Source of the DNA: an uncultured Candidatus Melainabacteria bacterium
GTDB lineage: Bacteria; Cyanobacteriota; Vampirovibrionia; Gastranaerophilales; Gastranaerophilaceae
DNA length: 64,000 nucleotides
Reading direction: 5' to 3'
Assembly: GCA_949915775.1 (NCBI GenBank)
Contig: CATLEG010000001.1
Span: 13,292-77,291 of the forward strand
In this document: piece by piece, positions 37,472-64,000 of the stretch
How the letters are laid out: every line of letters begins with the position of its first letter
Position numbering within the stretch: the stretch's first letter is position 1
Position numbers and translations under genes: made by a program
Notes under the pieces: generated by a model
Databases searched by the model: none
What the model saw: only the letters and a program-made list of their open reading frames with translations
What the model was told of the DNA's origin: nothing

Positions 37472-38794
37472 ATGACAAATAAAATTAGTAGACGTGAAAG
37501 AACAGAATCATTTGTTAGACATATAAAAAAAGAGCGGGAAGAAAGTTCTTCTTTTGCTAAAGTTTTAATTGGTATGATAATTGTATTTGTAGGAATTATT
37601 GCTGCTTTATTTATTTTTGCGGGCAATGAAGAAATTATAACTAAAAATTTTGGTGAGAATTCTATTGTAACAAAGATTTATAAAAAATTAATTCAAACAA
37701 GTGCTAATAAAGAACATGCGGATTTTGCACTTCCATTTGGTTTAAGACGTCAAAATATTTTGTTTTTGGGAGTTGATGCAAGCGGAAATCCTGATGATTT
37801 ATGGACCGGCACAAGAACTGATACTATAATTCTTGTTAATATTGATCCTAAAACAAAATCTGTTAATGCATTATCAATTCCTCGTGATAGTAAAGTTTAT
37901 CTTCCAAAAAATAATGGAGTCAATAAGATTAACGCTGCACATGCTATAGGCGGCGTTGAAATGACTAAAAGAACTGTAGAAGATACATTAGGAGTCCATA
38001 TTGATCGTTATGTAATGGTTCATGATGATGCTGTTAAAGAAATTGTTAATGCAATGGACGGGTTAGACATTTATGTCGAAAAACCAATGCATTACAATGA
38101 TTATTCAGGAAATTTACATATTAATTTTACTAAAGGAAATCATCATTTGAATGGTCAGCAGGCTGTTGAATATTTGAGATTTAGACATGATGCACTGGGT
38201 GATATTGGCAGAACACAGCGCCAGCAGTGGTTATTAAGAAGTTTATTAACTCAATTAAAGCAGCCGTCAACTATAACAAAAATTCCAGATATAATTTCTG
38301 TTGCGAAAAAATATGTTAAAACGGATATGTCTTTTTATGAAATGTCACAATATGCAGCACTTGCAAGACATGTTGATATGGATAAGATAGAAATAGCAAT
38401 GCTTCCTGGGGCACCAAATCAGAAAGGTTATATAAGTTATTGGATTTTAGACCCAGAGAAAACTCAAGAAGTAGTTAATAGAGTGATTTATAGAGACAAA
38501 GAACATTTTGATGAAACAATGCCTGTTACGGCAAGTGTGTTGGCATCGGACTCTCTTAAAGGTGAAGCTTTTGCACAGCATTTGAAAGATGCCGGAATTG
38601 AGGTGAAATGTACCGGCCATATATCTCGTGCACATTCTCAGTTTATTGCTCATTCAAGTAAAATTACGAACGAATATTATAATCATTTGAAAAAGAAAGA
38701 TGAAAGTATGGGCGGATTGCAGTTTGTATATGATCCGGTGAATTATTATTGCGGTGAGTCAGATTTTACGGTGATTTTATCCGGCAATCAATAA
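37472..38794 (+). CDS. LCP (LytR-CpsA-Psr) family protein
   Basis: ILFLGVD, RTDTIILV, SIPRDS, KINAAH, LRFRHD, DIGRTQRQQ. Confidence 0.92.
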   Translation: MTNKISRRERTESFVRHIKKEREESSSFAKVLIGMIIVFVGIIAALFIFAGNEEIITKNFGENSIVTKIYKKLIQTSANKEHADFALPFGLRRQNILFLGVDASGNPDDLWTGTRTDTIILVNIDPKTKSVNALSIPRDSKVYLPKNNGVNKINAAHAIGGVEMTKRTVEDTLGVHIDRYVMVHDDAVKEIVNAMDGLDIYVEKPMHYNDYSGNLHINFTKGNHHLNGQQAVEYLRFRHDALGDIGRTQRQQWLLRSLLTQLKQPSTITKIPDIISVAKKYVKTDMSFYEMSQYAALARHVDMDKIEIAMLPGAPNQKGYISYWILDPEKTQEVVNRVIYRDKEHFDETMPVTASVLASDSLKGEAFAQHLKDAGIEVKCTGHISRAHSQFIAHSSKITNEYYNHLKKKDESMGGLQFVYDPVNYYCGESDFTVILSGNQ

Positions 38795-38812
38795 AATTCC
38801 ATATAGGAAAAT

Positions 38813-38886
38813 GTGCTTGTAGCTCAGCTGGATAGAGCGTTTCCCTCCGAAGGAAAAGGTCGTGCGTTCGAATCGCATCAGGCACA
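38813..38886 (+). tRNA. tRNA-Arg(CCG)
   Basis: Acceptor GTGCTTG/CAGGCAC; anticodon arm TTTCC-CTCCGAA-GGAAA; T arm GTGCG-TTCGAAT-CGCAT. Confidence 0.95.
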
Positions 38887-38888
38887 AA

Positions 38889-39310
38889 TAAAAAGACGGC
38901 AATAGCCGTCTTTTTATTTGTAATGATAGCAGATACGAGCGCCAATTGCGTTCGAGCGAAATTTTTGCAGAGGGCGAAAGCATTTTCTTTGAACAATGCA
39001 AATTGTGAAAAGAAAATCTGTAGACCCGTTTATCGCAAAAATTTCAAGACAATCGCATCAGAGATTAAAAAGATGGCAACAGCCATCTTTTTATTTGTAA
39101 ATGATAGCGGATGCGAACGTCAATTGCGTTCAAGCGAAGTTTTTGCAGAGGGCGAAAGCATTTTCTTTGAACAATGTCAATTGTGAAAAGAAAATCTGTA
39201 GACCCGTTTAATGCAAAAATTTCAAGACAATCGCATCAGAGATTAAAAAGATGGCAATAGCCATCTTTTTATTTGTAAATGATAGCAGATGTGAACGCCA
39301 ATTGCGTTTG
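38889..39310 (+). repeat. tRNA-linked tandem repeat, ~2.4 copies of 177-178 bp
   Basis: Units start at 38889, 39066 and 39244. Each begins with a terminator hairpin; complete units end with AATCGCATCAG, identical to tRNA positions 38871-38881. Confidence 0.9.
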
Positions 39311-39426
39311 GCGTAAGTTAGTGTATTTTTTATATGTCAAATTGTAACATTTTATACAATACAACTAAAGTTTGCTTAATATACATCCGTTAAAAAAATT
39401 ATTAGCAGAATTTATAGGTATAAATT

Positions 39427-41352
39427 GTGAGTTTAATAAATATTAATAATTCTAACATAGATCTAATATATTTAGATAAAAATAAAAAATATGATAAAAC
39501 TCAAGTTTCAGACGATTCATCAATTTTTTTAGAAATAAAATCCTCAAAAATTAATAATCAAAATAATTCTCCATCCCAACAAACTCTTAATCAAAATGCA
39601 GAAAATATTGAGGAGATTAAGAATTTACCGCCTGAAAATATCTCAAAATTTGAAATAAAAAAAATAACTGATTTAAATACCGGAATTTACAAAGATCAGG
39701 TCGTACAGATGACTGATGGTAAATTTTATGAGTTTGATCCTCAAGGTAGAGTTACACGTGTATATAATGAGCCGAAAAAAGAATCTAAAAATGGAACTCC
39801 TAATTCATTCACCTATATTATTTATAATGATGACGGCAGTATAAATGAATACATTAAATATGAAAATGAAGGTAAAATAATAAACGGACAAAGAAAATGC
39901 GGTATTTATAACAATAACGGTGAATTACAATCGTATTACATAGACAGTAATTTTGATAATATTAGCGAAGATTTTGGATGTCAAATTTCATACGACAAAG
40001 AAGGTAAAACTACAGGAAAAGCAATCTCTGCTTATAATAAAGATGGTAAAACAATTACTAATACGTTTTATGATGAAAACAATAAAATAACAGGTGTAGA
40101 AAATTTTATTTATGATACAGATGGAAAATATCGTTCTGAAACTATTTCATACGACAAAGAAGGTAGAATTGCAGGAAAAATAATCTCCACTTATAATAAA
40201 GATGGAGAAATAATAAATTCTAATTCTAAAACAGTTTATCCTGAAGCAAGTGAAGAAGCTAAAAATATTCATAACAAGCTTTCTAATATTACACCGGAAA
40301 ACTTAAATGAAATATTTGAACATATAGAAAATCTTAAAATAGAAAATACAGAGGCTAATGATGATGAAGGTAAAGATAACATACAATTTGTAATGGATGC
40401 ATATGAAGTTGTATATGGTAAATCATTACTTGAAGCTCTTGCAGAAACTCCTAATGGTAAAATTCCGGCTCAAGAAATGATTGATCGGGTTAAATTTTTG
40501 TGTAGTTCGAAAACAGATGATGATCATTATAAATATACTGACGATATTCAAAAAGATATGGAATCACATCCAAATGACTATAAAAAATTATCTGTAGATT
40601 TAAAACGTATGTTAAATAGAAGCTGGTTATCAAAAACTGATAATGACAAAGGTGAATATGGAGATAATGACATAAATATAAATGGAATTATTGATTCAAA
40701 TCAAAACGTAAATCAAAACCTAACCGGAGATTGTTATCTAATTGCCTCAATCATTGCACTAAGCAAAAAACCTGAAGGTGCCAAGGCAATAAAAGAAATG
40801 GTACACGAAAACAATGACGGCTCTGTAACGGTAACCCTGAAAGGTGTAAATAAAAGCTATACGATTTCTCAACAAGAACTTTTAAATGCAGATATGTTTT
40901 CTGTAGGTGATGATGATATGCGGGTTATTGAAATAGCTTTTGACAAATATAGACGAGATTTAGCTTATGAATCAGAAAATTATATGACAGCTTGTGATAT
41001 TGAAGGTGGCTATCTTACCGATGTCACTCAGGCAATTTTTGGTCAAGATGCTGAAGATATACAAGATGGAAAATTTGATATAAAAGACTTTAATAATCAA
41101 AATGTTGCATATTTGTTTAATATAAATATAGATGGAACATATAATGATACTGGTATTTTTGTAAAAAATACTATAACAGGAGAAAAAATATCAGGTACAA
41201 TGGTACAAAATCATGAATATGCGATAGTAAAAAGTGATGAAAATAATGTTTACTTTATAAATCCATGGGATAAAAATGAAGAATTATCAATGAATATTGA
41301 AGATTTTAAATCTATTCAAGGACTAAATATATCTTCTTTTAAATTTGCTTAA
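39427..41352 (+). CDS. Large protein with YD/MORN-like repeats and C-terminal papain/calpain-like cysteine protease domain
   Basis: QNLTGDCYLIASI (Q...C), HEYAI (H), FINPWD (N); internal 53-aa duplication (nt 39985/40144). Confidence 0.72.
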   Translation: MSLININNSNIDLIYLDKNKKYDKTQVSDDSSIFLEIKSSKINNQNNSPSQQTLNQNAENIEEIKNLPPENISKFEIKKITDLNTGIYKDQVVQMTDGKFYEFDPQGRVTRVYNEPKKESKNGTPNSFTYIIYNDDGSINEYIKYENEGKIINGQRKCGIYNNNGELQSYYIDSNFDNISEDFGCQISYDKEGKTTGKAISAYNKDGKTITNTFYDENNKITGVENFIYDTDGKYRSETISYDKEGRIAGKIISTYNKDGEIINSNSKTVYPEASEEAKNIHNKLSNITPENLNEIFEHIENLKIENTEANDDEGKDNIQFVMDAYEVVYGKSLLEALAETPNGKIPAQEMIDRVKFLCSSKTDDDHYKYTDDIQKDMESHPNDYKKLSVDLKRMLNRSWLSKTDNDKGEYGDNDININGIIDSNQNVNQNLTGDCYLIASIIALSKKPEGAKAIKEMVHENNDGSVTVTLKGVNKSYTISQQELLNADMFSVGDDDMRVIEIAFDKYRRDLAYESENYMTACDIEGGYLTDVTQAIFGQDAEDIQDGKFDIKDFNNQNVAYLFNINIDGTYNDTGIFVKNTITGEKISGTMVQNHEYAIVKSDENNVYFINPWDKNEELSMNIEDFKSIQGLNISSFKFA

Positions 41353-51978: not shown

Positions 51979-52830
51979 ATGAATTTACAAACACTTTCAC
52001 AATATTTAGATTATCTGGAAATAGAAAAAGGACTTTCTCAAAATACGCTGGAAGCTTATAGAAGAGATATAAGTGATTTTTTGGACTTTTGTGGAGATAT
52101 TGAAGAAATTCAGCGAACACAATTAAATTCTTATATTAGGAATTTACATGAAAAAAAATATTCACCTACAAGTGTTATGCGAAAAATAGCTTCGATTCGC
52201 GGATTTTTTAAATGGGCATGTACAAATGAAATAATAAAAACAAATCCGGCTTTAACTTTAGAACAACCGAAAATTCCTAAACGTTTACCAAAAGTGATTT
52301 CAGTAAAAGAAATTGAGGAAATATTAAATCAAAATTTAACGAATTATGAACGTGTGATTGTAGAGCTTTTATATGGCTGCGGTTTGCGAGTATCTGAACT
52401 TGTTGAATTAAAAATAAACGATTTTGATATAAAAAACAAATATCTTGAATGTACCGGCAAAGGTTCAAAAGATAGAATCATACCGCTTGGTAACAAAGCA
52501 TGTGAAGCCATAAAAAAATATCTTCCTCAAAGAGATTATATAATTGCAAAATTCAATATAACTTCAAAAAAGCTGTTAATAAATAATTCTGGACAAAATG
52601 CAACACGACAAGAAATATATACATTTATTCATGAACAGGGAAAAAATTTGCATAAAACAATATCACCTCATACACTTCGCCATAGTTTTGCAACCCATTT
52701 GTTAGAAAACGGTGCAGATTTAAGAGTTGTACAAGAATTGTTAGGTCATAGTGATGTTGCAACAACTCAACTTTATACGCATATAAGTAAAAAACGCTTG
52801 AAAGATGTATATTTTAGTATAAATAAATAA
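51979..52830 (+). CDS. xerD: Tyrosine recombinase XerD
   Basis: IEKGLSQNTLEAYRRDI, LYGCGLRVSEL, SPHTLRHSFATHLLENGADLRVVQELLGH, TTQLYTH. Confidence 0.92.
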   Translation: MNLQTLSQYLDYLEIEKGLSQNTLEAYRRDISDFLDFCGDIEEIQRTQLNSYIRNLHEKKYSPTSVMRKIASIRGFFKWACTNEIIKTNPALTLEQPKIPKRLPKVISVKEIEEILNQNLTNYERVIVELLYGCGLRVSELVELKINDFDIKNKYLECTGKGSKDRIIPLGNKACEAIKKYLPQRDYIIAKFNITSKKLLINNSGQNATRQEIYTFIHEQGKNLHKTISPHTLRHSFATHLLENGADLRVVQELLGHSDVATTQLYTHISKKRLKDVYFSINK

Positions 52831-52897
52831 AAAATCTTGCAAAGAAAAATTTTTGTGATAATATAATTTTGTGCTCACAAAAGAGTAAATAATAGAT

Positions 52898-52971
52898 GCG
52901 TCTGTAGCTCAGCTGGATAGAGCATCTGCCTTCTAAGCAGAGGGTCCCGCGTTCGAATCGCGGCAGGCGTA
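52898..52971 (+). tRNA. tRNA-Arg(TCT)
   Basis: Acceptor GCGTCTG/CAGGCGT; anticodon arm TCTGC-CTTCTAA-GCAGA; T arm CCGCG-TTCGAAT-CGCGG. Confidence 0.95.
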
Positions 52972-53168
52972 AATTAAAGGAGATAGGAAAACCTATCTCC
53001 TTTAATTTTTGTTTGACAAGCGATGAGAACGCTCAATGCGTAAGCATTGTATCGTGTTCGAGCGCGAGTGAGCTGAGGGCGGAGGACTTTTGCCAAAAGA
53101 ACTGTGTTCTTGCAGGCAAAATCCGTAGACCCGTTAAACGCGAACGAACAAGACAATCGTGTCAGGCA
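52971..53168 (+). repeat. tRNA-linked element (single copy) including terminator
   Basis: Terminator 52971-53008, then GTTCGAGCG...GAGGGCG...AAATCCGTAGACCCGTT...CAAGACAATCGTGTCAGGCA, homologous to the 38889 units. Confidence 0.82.
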
Positions 53169-53278
53169 TTAATGAAAAGAGGATTCGGTTCAATCTGTCT
53201 TTTAAATATCTATATAAATATTTAAAATAACACGGTGAGTTTGTTTATTTTGTTACAAAAAGAAACGATAATTTTCAA

Positions 53279-63716: not shown

Positions 63717-63742
63717 AATTTTTATGTTAAAATAATTACGAT

Positions 63743-63816
63743 GGCTTCGTAGCTCAGCAGGATAGAGCAGCGGTTTCCTAAACCGAAGATCGCGCGTTCG
63801 AATCGCGCCGGGGCCA
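63743..63816 (+). tRNA. tRNA-Arg(CCT)
   Basis: Acceptor GGCTTCG/CGGGGCC; anticodon loop TTCCTAA; T arm GCGCG-TTCGAAT-CGCGC. Confidence 0.93.
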
Positions 63817-63967
63817 GTTTCTTTTTCTTTGCTAAAAAGAAAAAGAAACCAAAAAGAAAAGACCACTTGGGCTTTGGACAAGTTTTTATTGGGTTGTTCA
63901 AAAGAAAGTATCACTTGGGTAGTTTTGGAGTTTGACGGTTTTGGTTTTTAAAGAGGCTTTTGGTAAC

Positions 63968-64000
63968 GATAAGAACGCAAAGTGCGTTCGAGCGCGAGTG
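63968..64000 (+). repeat. Start of a third tRNA-linked element (truncated by window edge)
   Basis: GATAAGAACGC...GTGCGTTCGAGCGCGAGTG matches 53022-53070. Confidence 0.7.

Follow-up and report, generated by a model that had tools for sequence, protein, structure and literature searches.

The window, a stretch of 64,000 nucleotides from a 2.04-Mb, 98% complete assembly (G000) of an uncultured Candidatus Melainabacteria bacterium, carries a tandem array at 38889-39308, directly behind an intact tRNA-Arg(CCG) gene (Table 1). Tandem Repeats Finder reported it as one array with a period of 178, 2.4 copies, and 92% matches. Each 178-bp unit opens with an intrinsic-terminator-like hairpin, a design that recurred in all 47 tRNA-linked units examined. 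In unit 1, TGCGTTCGA matches the adjacent tRNA exactly over the T-stem 5' strand and into the beginning of the T-loop (its counterpart in unit 2 is TGCGTTCAA). On the 3' side of the core, AATCGCATCAG reproduces exactly what remains of the T-loop, followed by the 3' strand of the T-stem and the initial 3 nt of the acceptor 3' strand. Enclosed by these two halves is a 95-nt core, which in copy 1 runs GCG, stem P1, GAGC-N-GAGGGCG, variable covarying stems, CUGUAGACCCGUU-N-AAY-GC, P1', and CAAGAC. The segments between and behind the cores (R segments) carry tRNA 3' fragments and further anti-T-arm sequence (GATGCGA pairs with TCGCATC in the second), and the third halts at T-loop position 55, has no core, and gives way to unique sequence; a tRNA-His array on another contig (C136) likewise closes with an incomplete R segment that lacks a core and breaks off at GGGTTCG. 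The original prediction of repeats of about 178 bp, built from a terminator, a T-arm 5' half, a core of about 95 nt, and a T-arm 3' half plus acceptor, was confirmed in all its parts. It also held that homologues follow tRNA-Arg(TCT) and tRNA-Arg(CCT) and that tRNA-Ile(GAT) has none, which we found to be correct; the core of the Arg(CCT) unit starts at 63992, leaves the window, and reaches C1:77372, and on its 3' side stands AATCGCGCCGGGGCCACCA, a tRNA 3' end with CCA present.

Table 1. Features of the three tRNA-Arg loci in the window (window positions; R1 is the covariance model of the core)
Feature	Position	Strand	Evidence
tRNA-Arg(CCG), intact	38812-38887	+	ARAGORN; Rfam tRNA 65.4 bits
First copy of the repeated tRNA 3' segment, T-loop position 58 onward	38871-38886, within tRNA-Arg(CCG)	+	
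Unit 1 terminator-like hairpin and T-run AAAAAGACGGCAATAGCCGTCTTTTT	38889-38917	+	Read from sequence
Unit 1 anti-T-arm segment and hairpin Pa	38926-38955	+	CGAGCGC pairs with GCGTTCG
T-arm 5' half copy TGCGTTCGA, end of the unit 1 anti-T-arm/Pa region	38947-38955	+	
Core copy 1, type A	38956-39050	+	Model R1 match 38953-39054, 77.9 bits; covariation
Second R segment: tRNA 3' fragment, terminator 2, anti-T-arm, T-arm 5' half	39051-39133	+	Sequence; Tandem Repeats Finder
tRNA 3' fragment copy AATCGCATCAG in second R segment, degenerate after G	39051-39061	+	
T-arm 5' half TGCGTTCAA in second R segment	39125-39133	+	
Core copy 2, type A	39134-39228	+	94% identical to copy 1 (BLAST); model R1 match 39131-39232, 75.7 bits
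Third, partial R segment: tRNA 3' fragment, terminator 3, anti-T-arm, TTGCGTT	39229-39308	+	Sequence; Tandem Repeats Finder
tRNA-Arg(TCT)	52897-52972	+	ARAGORN; Rfam
Arg(TCT) unit: terminator, anti-T-arm GACAAGCGATGAGAACGC, inner GNRA hairpin CAATGCGTAAGCATTG, T-arm 5' half CGTGTTCGA	52974-53061	+	
Arg(TCT) unit core, type A	53062-53154	+	Model R1 match 53059-53158, 98.1 bits
Diverged copy of tRNA-Arg(TCT) 3' end AATCGTGTCAGGCAT	53155-53169	+	
tRNA-Arg(CCT), CCA not encoded in gene	63742-63817	+	ARAGORN
Arg(CCT) unit: anti-T-arm, hairpin ACGATAAGAACGCAAAGTGCGTTCGA, and first 9 nt of core	63964-64000	+	

The core folds as a rod, and compensatory covariation along it is strong. The earlier observation that a stem changes in sequence and keeps its pairing was borne out and extended, as 15 of 21 predicted pairs were compensatory among 24 copies from the genome itself. 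Across 98 copies from many species, double changes occurred in 16 of the 21 pairs and 95.9% of alignment cells were paired, versus 71.5% after shuffling and 31-41% with slid partners, in an alignment that was fitted to the model and hence favours pairing somewhat. The stems are variable throughout the family and the internal loops are conserved, with non-Watson-Crick elements that include tandem G-A pairs, a 3x3 GNA/GNA loop, and a G-U pair that is invariant in 96 of 96 copies, so that the folded strand is the sense strand. The AAY bulge is not a canonical K-turn, because the tandem G-A pairs lie two base pairs away from it. A hammerhead reading of GAUGAG...CGAGCG at the three-way junction was rejected on junction lengths, misfitting invariant bases, and lack of a model match; the likeness of GAYGAG...CGAGCG to the hammerhead CUGAUGA...GAAA is superficial, and no Rfam ribozyme matched. 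In Rfam 15, only tRNA reached threshold over the whole window, and nothing meaningful (RtT included) appeared over 38700-39450 at E <= 10 or over four related loci at E <= 1; a literature search found no description of this family. The core family is a well-supported structured element without an Rfam entry, which annotation pipelines will overlook, and the same pipelines may miscall its split tRNA fragments and stop-codon overlaps.

A covariance model located about 56 cores in the 2.04-Mb genome, among them copies that follow the tmRNA gene and no fewer than 16 different tRNA genes. Besides Arg tRNAs, the hosts genome-wide were tRNAs for Ser (three), Leu (two), Gly (two), Lys (two), Glu, Met, His, Asp, and Val, together with tmRNA. 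The presence of a unit at all three Arg tRNAs had been taken as an isotype-specific link, which was wrong: the Arg-only appearance arose because the window showed just Arg cases, and 47 T-loop-type units from many species, typically 63-108 nt 3' of the tRNA, span nearly every isotype. Copy number was polymorphic, as the original prediction had proposed to check, ranging from 0 to 55 within the genus (0-28 in the congeners of this genome) and from 0 to 20 elsewhere in the order, in its other families. A pattern scan across GTDB yielded over 118 stretches, nearly all labelled Gastranaerophilales or Melainabacteria, and the core family is confined to Gastranaerophilales. Two sub-types carry the signatures GAGGGCG...GUAGACCCGUU (A) and GAGGCUGG...GAAUUGCCGUU (B), and short forms measure 55-75 nt. 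About 30 cores genome-wide occur without any tRNA sequence, and about a dozen copies have the core centred within another palindromic repeat. At about 50 copies per 2 Mb, a visible part of the intergenic DNA in this poorly known, uncultured gut lineage belongs to the family, which very likely contributes to the fragmentation of these assemblies into many contigs.

Comparison of congeners revealed insertion polymorphism at tRNA genes. G005 and G012 have an empty site at tRNA-Arg(CCG). In G007 the site is filled: a single unit of about 190 bp brings a 3' end that completes the tRNA, and the original 3' end, still joined to its own flank, comes immediately after the core. At tRNA-Arg(CCT), CCA is natively encoded in G002, and in G000 the proximal 3' end has no CCA and the distal copy has it; the same proximal/distal pattern was found at tRNA-Asp in G026 and tRNA-Leu in G010. 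The distal copies are thus the original gene ends, because relatives encode CCA in the gene. Reverse transcription of a mature tRNA, which CCA on the distal copies might suggest, was discarded since the relatives' genes encode CCA and reverse transcriptase is absent. The empty and filled sites, together with CCA status, exhibit what characterizes tRNA-targeting elements, namely a borne 3' end that restores the gene and an original end displaced distally, and they support one of two readings put forward originally, a non-autonomous mini-element that enters at the T-loop, leaves a displaced tRNA 3' fragment, and multiplies in tandem. These alleles could in part reflect precise loss instead of gain. 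The insertion point lay at 57/58 to 58/59 of the T-loop in most units, at 55/56 in several, and once in the acceptor strand, and such variation is unusual for a site-specific recombinase. A search for an uninterrupted anti-T-arm plus T-arm copy, representing a pre-insertion or post-excision state, found none; the stray T-arms that it met were ordinary displaced tRNA ends of larger islands.

The antisense segment paired better with the T-arm and acceptor copy of its own unit than with swapped ones (mean -12.2 vs -10.0 kcal/mol, p = 1.3e-4), and own pairing was the stronger in 35 of 47 units. Inverted, imperfect target copies that pair into a duplex, as in a folded single-strand att site, were accordingly present in this 47-unit test. 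Flank-to-flank complementarity over the copies showed modest enrichment (-11.5 vs -9.5 kcal/mol) and is therefore a feature of certain sub-classes, not a rule for every copy.

The core also behaves as a mobile module by itself. Besides tRNA genes, it inserts into stop codons, into the loop or centre of palindromic repeats, and head to tail beside itself, always in sense orientation, and all tRNA-linked and stop-linked copies are co-oriented with the host gene. Ten copies begin inside an in-frame TAG stop codon (L14, S14, L6, S15, GAPDH, and others), compared with just 19% of long ORFs that end in TAG. Here the insertion falls between the second and third base (UA|G), and TAG is regenerated because the element starts with G, so that insertions in ribosomal-protein and glycolytic genes leave the protein unchanged, which is unusual for bacterial repeats. 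At the rpsO stop codon, G000 and G008 carry the element and G031 and G014 have an empty site; the G000/G031 junction has no clean insert boundary, as the sequence by the 3' end differs by one base. A palindromic host repeat was found with and without the core, with identical boundaries, and in L099 three bare cores stand head to tail as exact 93-nt units. The exact stop-codon placement has no DNA-level explanation, which weighs against the mini-cassette reading favoured below. Equally unusual are cassettes of less than 200 bp that act like integrative elements at many tRNA genes, and the antisense copy of the target that each cassette carries.

Candidates for a mobilising enzyme were sought in the elements themselves and across 31 genomes. 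The units (180-190 bp) hold no integrase of their own, and the cargo islets examined were free of recombinases. An autonomous element with the 5' and 3' halves apart around an ORF was represented just by truncated fragments, and no longer copy with the same ends enclosed an ORF. The 98% complete G000 assembly yielded zero RVT_1 reverse transcriptase candidates and had no Y1/IS200 transposase, IS110 recombinase (DEDD_Tnp_IS110), or TnpB zinc-ribbon domain, nor did these families track copy number; Y1_Tnp was absent from G000, G003, G008, and G014 (17-55 copies each), and IS110 and TnpB genes were absent from most carriers. DUF559 was present and uncorrelated with copy number. By presence and copy-number correlation over the 31 genomes, none of Y1_Tnp, RVT_1, DUF559, IS110, and TnpB fits as mobiliser. 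All-against-all ORF clustering gave no multicopy transposase as candidate and returned small tyrosine recombinases in phage-like regions, DUF559 genes, and repeat-derived pseudo-ORFs. The genome contains tyrosine recombinases, including a Xer-like gene at 51979-52830 of the window. Known classes of enzyme-dependent repeats did not match either: the termini pair (P1) as in MITEs, but with free, covarying sequence and no autonomous copy; no target-site duplication was seen beyond an ambiguous 1-2 nt; and for REP/REPIN-RAYT or IS200/IS605 (PATE) elements there is neither a Y1 (HUH) enzyme nor a fixed 4-5-nt 5' target, the 5' flanks varying among TTCGA, GGGTT, ATA, GGGA, and AAAA. Retroelements (retron, group II intron, or retroplasmid-like) are disfavored by the lack of RVT_1 and by CCA ends that are genomic.

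Taken as a whole, the evidence makes it fairly probable, though well short of certain, that the 178-bp array consists of 2.4 copies, in tandem, of an integrative mini-cassette that is non-autonomous and about 180-190 bp long. Such a cassette would consist, in order, of a replacement tRNA 3' end from inside the T-loop (position 58 or 59), an intrinsic terminator, a segment antisense to T-arm and acceptor, a short hairpin ending GGTTCG(A), and the 93-95-nt core rod ending CAAGAC(A). Because the cassette supplies a 3' end, T-loop insertion would leave the cognate tRNA intact, and the original 3' end would be displaced to right behind the core. The local array most likely grew by unequal recombination between units, because the distal AATCGCATCAG-AGATT fragments can at no time have completed a tRNA. 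We hypothesize that the mobile form is a folded single strand, that strands are exchanged at the base of stem P1, and that the enzyme acts in trans. In tRNA cassettes, the antisense segment may pair with both core-flanking T-arm halves and re-create the T-arm target as a duplex from which the core branches off to the side, by the logic of attC or CTX-phage attP(+). After insertion, the element would be co-transcribed with tRNAs and highly expressed operons and would probably act as a 3' or intercistronic RNA hairpin, as do REP, ERIC, and Correia repeats.

A broader reading that joins these steps, which we hold possible and yet doubtful, is that of a new gene-less class of mobile element whose folded single strand is recognised by shape and not by sequence. 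Under it, the bare rod of about 95 nt would enter exposed hairpin loops and translation stop points on the sense strand of highly transcribed genes, while the composite form, whose antisense T-arm would rebuild the target as a duplex in the attC/CTX manner, would home into any cognate tRNA gene and replace the tRNA 3' end, driven by a host-encoded or new enzyme. If true, the integration logic of integron attC and CTX would extend to tRNA genes and point to a new recombination activity.

Somewhat less likely still, the core may chiefly be an RNA that serves host or phage, a processing, stabilising, or protein-binding hairpin at tRNA 3' ends and after the stops of highly expressed genes. Its spread would then be secondary, and its conserved internal loops would be bound by a host protein or nuclease; REP/ERIC/Correia hairpins and the RNase III sites that separate phage T7 genes offer parallels. 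Every copy is sense to a transcribed gene, and the non-Watson-Crick loops are typical of protein-binding RNA; copies follow L14, S14, and L6 in one ribosomal operon as well as S15, GAPDH, an SLH protein, and a pilin-like gene; short forms sit between phage structural genes, right after stops and ahead of ribosome-binding sites; and the tRNA-Asp copy is conserved across two families of the order. However, close relatives do without the element at the same genes (rpsO is empty in 17 of 19 congeners), copy number swings over its full range within one genus, many copies stand inside other repeats or past terminators, places for which one expects little transcription, and a replacement tRNA end and an anti-T-arm would be superfluous for an RNA hairpin. 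Were this reading true, the core would qualify as a candidate for a new protein-binding RNA motif, one present in the phages of the lineage as well as in highly expressed operons.

We regard as improbable that a small RNA is ligated or reverse-spliced into RNA breaks, at T-loops and A-site-cleaved stop codons, and then copied back to DNA. RelE-type toxins cut UA|G, exactly where the stop-codon insertions fall, and RelE/HigB-like toxin-antitoxin cassettes lie within one tRNA array, which, with the consistent sense orientation and the RNA-like look of the structure, would suit such a route; against it stand the lack of any reverse transcriptase candidate in this 98% complete genome, a native encoding of CCA that explains the CCA ends, and the lack of any known ribozyme match. 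Slightly less probable again is that the core directs, or forms the scaffold for, an RNA-guided recombinase or nuclease, as IS110 bridge RNAs and TnpB/IscB omega-RNAs do, with the anti-T-arm or the flanking tRNA 3' end as guide. A unit of about 178 nt and a rod with internal loops do recall bridge RNAs, the antisense segment matches the target tRNA, and the flanking tRNA 3' end is placed as an omega-RNA guide would be, but the cognate IS110 and TnpB genes (and Y1 TnpA) are missing from G000, the first two also from most carriers, no Rfam omega or HEARO model matched, the insertions show no conserved target motif on their 5' side, and conserved internal loops with variable stems are the opposite of programmable guide loops. 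The second of the original readings, a tRNA-like RNA with a large T-loop insertion, and likewise a plain local tandem duplication without mobility, are highly improbable even though T-arm halves flank the core exactly and the array is tandem, because the second copy has no tRNA 5' half and neither ARAGORN nor Rfam detects a tRNA there, the T-arm halves pair with the upstream antisense segment and not with each other, the core occurs about 30 times without tRNA sequence, and relatives have empty sites.

As integrative mini-cassettes, the repeats can be set beside several known systems. The 178-bp repeats reportedly found at E. coli tyrT, with their RtT RNA, had been named as an analogue, and this holds for layout: in both, tandem units of about 178 bp stand directly behind a tRNA gene, with a tRNA 3' end copy per unit and no enzyme coding. 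It fails for sequence and structure, as no Rfam family (RtT included) matched at E <= 10. The units here also depart from tyrT in that the 95-nt core interrupts the tRNA copy, in their antisense T-arm segment, in their spread over at least 16 tRNAs and tmRNA, and in a core that turns up at sites without tRNAs as well. REP/BIME, ERIC, Correia (nemis), and RPE repeats influence mRNAs or are tolerated in them, and like them the core is short, abundant, hairpin-forming, lineage-specific, nested, and often right after stops; it differs in its free stems, conserved internal loops, strictly sense placement, and lack of target-site duplications, and no RAYT or IS630-type partner was found. To our knowledge, insertion inside T-loops or stop codons is undescribed for those repeats.

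Integron attC and CTX-phage attP(+) are said to be used as folded single-strand sites. By analogy only, the cassettes resemble them in two imperfect inverted target copies that would rebuild a duplex, an unpaired centre, a variable terminal hairpin, a single orientation, and apparently structural recognition; here, by contrast, a tRNA T-arm serves as target, the crossover point bears a 95-nt rod as a branch, and the core also inserts without the duplex. We know of no precedent in attC or CTX attP for a branch of about 95 nt at the crossover point. Integrative elements that target tRNA genes reportedly include integrase-less, CIME-type derivatives and tandem accretion at att sites, and the cassettes share with them the replacement 3' end, the original end displaced to the far junction, arrays at one tRNA, and cargo islets. 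They depart from them in a unit of 180-190 bp, in the absence of an integrase from any unit or islet examined, in a distal repeat interrupted by a structured core in the T-loop, and in a junction that varies by 2-3 nt. Some units enclose cargo: toxin-antitoxin modules at tRNA-Leu(TAG) are enclosed in this way, units in L144 and L185 surround islets of 1.5-4.4 kb, and the small islets include toxin-antitoxin modules and an SMR pump.

The repeats behind the Arg tRNA genes of the window belong to a family of small insertions that is lineage-specific, orientation-specific and strongly structured and that occurs in two forms, a bare core and a tRNA cassette of ~180-190 bp. Tandem Repeats Finder gave one array at 38889-39308 (period 178, 2.4 copies, 92% matches), which begins immediately 3' of tRNA-Arg(CCG) (38812-38887), and sequence reading, repeat finding and model matches all agreed with the original prediction as to the repeat unit and its homologues at the other Arg genes (see the table). 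The second unit part ends in an exact copy of the T-stem 5' strand and T-loop start of the adjoining tRNA, and the fourth part exactly repeats its remaining T-loop, its T-stem 3' strand and three acceptor bases, the first ones; a third unit ends, without a core, at TTGCGTT (39308). We queried the whole assembly (2.04 Mb, 143 contigs) first with the DNA sequence of the core and later with simple patterns, used 24 cores of this genome to build a covariance model (R1), and mapped the 38 tRNA genes and the tmRNA gene for comparison with core positions. The model gave 56 matches, ~50 with E below 1e-9, and at least 22 cores were located downstream of the tmRNA gene or of 16 different tRNA genes; by isotype these were Arg (three), Ser (three), Leu, Gly and Lys (two each), Glu, Met, His, Asp and Val. 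In other species, cores lay behind nearly every isotype, mostly 63-108 nt downstream. The supposed link to tRNA-Arg thus fell away, and the apparent specificity is the chance content of the window, where three Arg genes have the element and one Ile gene does not. Copy number ranged from 0 to 55 within the genus and from 0 to 20 in other families of the order, and when each GTDB species was scanned by pattern in one genome, more than 118 stretches were among the matches listed, almost all labelled Gastranaerophilales, Melainabacteria, Vampirovibrio or "Cyanobacteria bacterium". The few exceptions, under the names Methanobacteriaceae, Muribaculaceae or Fusobacterium (loci L097, L109, L131, L150) stood beside the usual tRNA arrangement and are probably mis-binned Gastranaerophilales contigs.

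The core consensus reads GCG, P1 (the foot stem), GAGC, N, GAGGGCG, variable stems, C(U/C)G(U/A)AGACCCGUU, N, AA(C/U), GCGAG, P1', CAAG(AC), and RNAalifold predicted a rod of 21 pairs from 24 copies. The expected stem covariation was found, with compensatory changes at 15 of the 21 pairs in these copies and double changes at 16 (490 cells) in 98 copies from many species. Standard pairs filled 95.9% of cells in the 98 copies compared to 71.5% in column shuffles, in an alignment fitted to the model and hence somewhat favouring pairing; an independent MAFFT alignment agreed, as did slid controls, where pairing fell to 31-41% with partners displaced by 1-3 columns. P1 is plain Watson-Crick in some copies (AUUGC/GCAAU, GACCUGC/GCAGGUC, GAAAUUUUUGC/GCAAAAAUUUC) and carries tandem G-A/A-G mismatches in others (CGAGUGAGC/GCGAACGAG), a GGG/CCC stem covaries to GUG/CAC, and the base 3' of GAGC covaries with that 3' of GUU (U-A in 43 sequences, A-U in 46). 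The core keeps its internal loops and leaves its stem sequences free. One G-U pair is invariant (96/96 sequences), and the core therefore folds on the sense strand. Its main sub-types are A (GAGGGCG...GUAGACCCGUU) and B (GAGGCUGGAGC...GCGGAAUUGCCGUU), beside short forms of 55-75 nt and type C (GAUUUGCGGACG...GGAGCAAAUC), a third, unrelated interior with the same ends as the core; its structured interior (GATTTGCGGACG...GGATAGCGAACAGATTGAG...CGAAACTCTGTGAGC..GGAGCAAATC) fills the core's slot in tRNA cassettes. None of these forms matched any Rfam 15 family.

Directly 3' of the core, all tRNA-linked copies have a tRNA copy that extends from within the T-loop to the discriminator, often running on into a terminator, and directly 5' of it a sequence ending GGTTCG(A), such that excision of the core in silico gave a perfect T-arm. 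The break falls at T-loop 57/58 or 58/59 in most units and at 55/56 in several (GGGTT/core/CGAATCC); the tRNA-Glu unit is broken in the acceptor 3' strand instead. The upstream segment is the reverse complement of the T-arm and first acceptor bases with an altered loop (in the tRNA-Met unit GGAGGGAUGAGAACCCA, where the exact reverse complement would be GGAGGGAUUCGAACCCA). This antisense segment is predicted to be able to pair with both T-arm halves, and the modelled cassette fold is a three-way junction of P0, Pa and the core rod. Among 47 units, antisense pairing averaged -12.2 kcal/mol with the unit's own tRNA copy versus -10.0 with the copies of other units, and was better with the own copy in 35 (Wilcoxon p = 1.3e-4). 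Terminator and spacer sequences vary among units; the design stays constant.

Coordinates of units, arms, cores and neighbouring features (G000, source genome; C, its contigs; other G, relatives' genomes; L, fetched loci)
Feature	Location	Strand	Description
Unit part 1			terminator-like hairpin and T-run
Unit part 2			~30 nt with 3' end TGCGTTCGA (TGCGTTCAA in unit 2)
Unit part 3 (core)	window 38956-39050, 39134-39228		95-nt segment
Unit part 4			AATCGCATCAG, directly 3' of the 95-nt segment
Core behind tRNA-Arg(TCT)	window 53062-53154		homologous
Core behind tRNA-Arg(CCT)	window, from 63992		homologous, continues past the edge
P0 arm			predicted: antisense segment with tRNA 3' copy
Pa arm			predicted: GAAC... 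with ...GUUC, cap often C(GNRA)G or GNA hairpin
Type C	G000 C62:6700-6830, C28:~16820; G011 locus L063
Tandem bare cores	L099 958-1243	-	no spacer, 3 x 93 nt
Tandem bare cores	G019 locus L046		no spacer, ~80-nt units
tRNA-Leu(TAG) array	G000 C3:22546-24700 (L031 1046-3200)
Palindromes with nested cores	G000 C22:9523, C17:21446, C51:349		examples
Minimal cores	G000 C4:8270-8324, C5:42030-42095
Minihelix sub-group	G000 C10:19846-19944, C30:391-489, C89:7057-7156, C9:13429-13527, C5:26289
DUF559 gene	G000 C5:15819-16199		six other loci
Tyrosine recombinase gene	window 51979-52830	+	XerC/XerD-type, 283 aa
Displaced tRNA halves	G000 C18:5900, C18:22559-22631		ordinary
Displaced tRNA halves	G000 C68:5651-5723, C68:10330		ordinary

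Insertion is evident at tRNA-Arg(CCG), which we compared in nine congeners. The locus is empty in G005 and G012 (...GTGCGTTCGAATCGCATCAGGCAC/GATTTCTATA...) and filled in G007 (...GTGCGTTCG/AATCGCATCAGGCAT, terminator, spacer, GCGTTCG, core, CAAGAC/AATCGCATCAGGCAC/GATTTCTATA...); therefore the distal tRNA 3' end and flank are original, and ~190 bp were inserted in G007, namely a new 3' end, terminator, antisense segment with hairpin, and core. In G011 the left part is as in G007 and the core is of type C; relative to this allele, G003 is empty. This comparison supports an integrating mini-element with a displaced tRNA 3' end, as had been proposed. For the growth of the local array (2.4 copies), unequal recombination between units is a better explanation than repeated integration, because its distal tRNA fragments (AATCGCATCAG-AGATT) could never complete a tRNA. 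Certain "empty" sites may be precise losses. At tRNA-Arg(CCT) of the source genome, CCA is missing from the functional proximal end and present in the distal copy, and it is likewise confined to the distal copy at tRNA-Asp in G026 and one tRNA-Leu locus in G010; CCA as a mark of reverse-transcribed mature tRNA was dropped, since the empty tRNA-Arg(CCT) gene of G002 encodes it natively. Some arrays enclose genes as cargo: at tRNA-Leu(TAG), cores and tRNA 3' copies border an unknown ORF and two toxin-antitoxin modules, and islets of 1.5 and 4.4 kb, both free of recombinase genes, are enclosed at other loci. The tRNA-Leu(TAG) array contains, in order, a RelE/HigB-like toxin paired with an HTH antitoxin, an ORF of 215 aa, two cores, each with a tRNA 3' copy behind it, and lastly the second toxin-antitoxin pair; the 90 nt behind the tRNA recur behind the second core.

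The core also inserts on its own. Ten cores of the source genome start within an in-frame TAG stop codon, their first G serving as its third base, in genes named from recognisable sequence: ribosomal proteins L14, S14 and L6 (one operon) and S15, GAPDH, an SLH-domain protein, a pilin-like, a HEAT-repeat and a GGGtGRT protein, and a Mu-like transposase. TAG terminates only 19% of long ORFs in this genome. The S15 gene, rpsO, lacks the element in 17 of 19 congeners, reading GGT TAA TTTTAAAAGCACCC in the nearest relative (G031, 96% identical) and GGA TA(GCGATTGC...CAAG..)TTTTAAAGCACCC in the source genome (element in brackets); it is empty in G014 (TAG TTTT) and filled in G008. Because the element begins with G, TAG is restored after TA whatever the original third base, and the encoded protein stays the same. 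In a broader sample, five of nine cores with an ORF end at most 40 nt upstream overlapped the stop in this manner, and 73 of 82 non-tRNA copies had no adjoining ORF end. About a dozen near-identical type B cores are nested in another palindromic repeat (CCCCTCTACCTCTGGGAG/core/AGGGTAGAATT), which is empty in ~25 copies with identical boundaries, and nesting in different palindromes was seen in further species. Bare cores also stand head to tail as exact 93-nt units (GCGG...CAAGCA), and short forms are found between structural genes, both in prophage regions of the source genome and in ten phage contigs from IMG/VR, immediately 3' of stops or just 5' of ribosome-binding sites.

Mechanistically, we infer that the element would be handled as a folded single strand, with strand exchange at the foot of P1. 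This reading is suggested because shape appears to be what is recognised (free stems, conserved loops, a strand-specific G-U), because fixed-sequence terminal repeats and target duplication are absent, because the targets are hairpin loops or sense-strand sites of very highly transcribed genes, and because cassettes hold an antisense target copy recreating the T-arm duplex with an unpaired centre. In integron attC sites and the CTX-phage attP(+) hairpin, a built-in inverted target copy gives a duplex with an unpaired centre, a design that the cassette would share. A single exchange between the core/A58 junction of a cassette and G57/A58 of a tRNA would yield exactly the product observed. A weak point is that the T-loop junction varies and is not one set phosphodiester bond; moreover, a 95-nt branch at the crossover point is, to our knowledge, unprecedented. 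The exact placement within stop codons has no DNA-level explanation, which keeps alive an RNA-level or transcription-coupled origin of the insertions; RelE-type toxins cut UA/G in the ribosomal A site. Among known systems, the E. coli tyrT 178-bp repeat (RtT) is closest in layout, integrase-less derivatives of tRNA-targeting integrative elements in behaviour, attC and CTX attP in design, and REP, ERIC and Correia repeats in lifestyle. By the tests run, the element is a member of none of these kinds, and our literature search found no description of the family. That it represents a distinct class, a single-strand mobile element recognised by shape, is a reading we hold to be rather unlikely. 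Once inserted, the element would lie in tRNA trailers and in 3' or intercistronic stretches of mRNA, and by analogy with REP, ERIC and Correia elements it could plausibly affect RNA processing or stability.

A mobilising enzyme was sought in the 98%-complete source genome and other high-copy genomes, from which Y1/IS200 transposase, reverse transcriptase, IS110 recombinase and TnpB were absent. The source genome held no longer element sharing the core's ends, and its sole multicopy enzyme genes were small tyrosine recombinases in phage-like regions. The DUF559 endonuclease was rejected as the mover, with seven genes in the source genome and none in G008, G014 and G024 (17-28 cores). These Vsr-like genes (~112 aa each) themselves resemble small mobile genes; the copy behind rpsO is within a block that has CCCTCTCC/GGAGAGGG palindromes on its flanks and is missing from G031. 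A Xer-like gene (Phage_int_SAM_1 and Phage_integrase domains) lies just upstream of tRNA-Arg(TCT), ending 67 nt before it.

Further sequences adjoin or resemble the core. In one sub-group it is followed by GGAGCG-TAGC-CGCTCC-ACCCACCA, a minihelix with an ACCA-like tail like a tRNA 3' end that matches no tRNA in the genome, and then by a conserved hairpin, TTGGATATAAAGTCCAA. Palindromic repeats CCCCTCTACCT(C/T)TGGGAGAGGGTAGAATT... and the related CCCTCTCTCTTTGTGAGAGGGT(A/T)GAATTTGTTAGTGAGC... number dozens of copies in the source genome, are often at contig ends and host nested cores. Two minimal cores (UCUGC...GCAGAGGG(C/U)GAAAGCG..GUACCCGUUUAAUGC...) stand in the leaders of an RlmN-like and another radical-SAM gene, immediately before ribosome-binding sites. 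Ordinary displaced tRNA 3' halves mark an island of ~16.6 kb at tRNA-Lys(CTT) on C18, where a tyrosine recombinase adjoins the tRNA, and one of ~4.6 kb at tRNA-Phe on C68.
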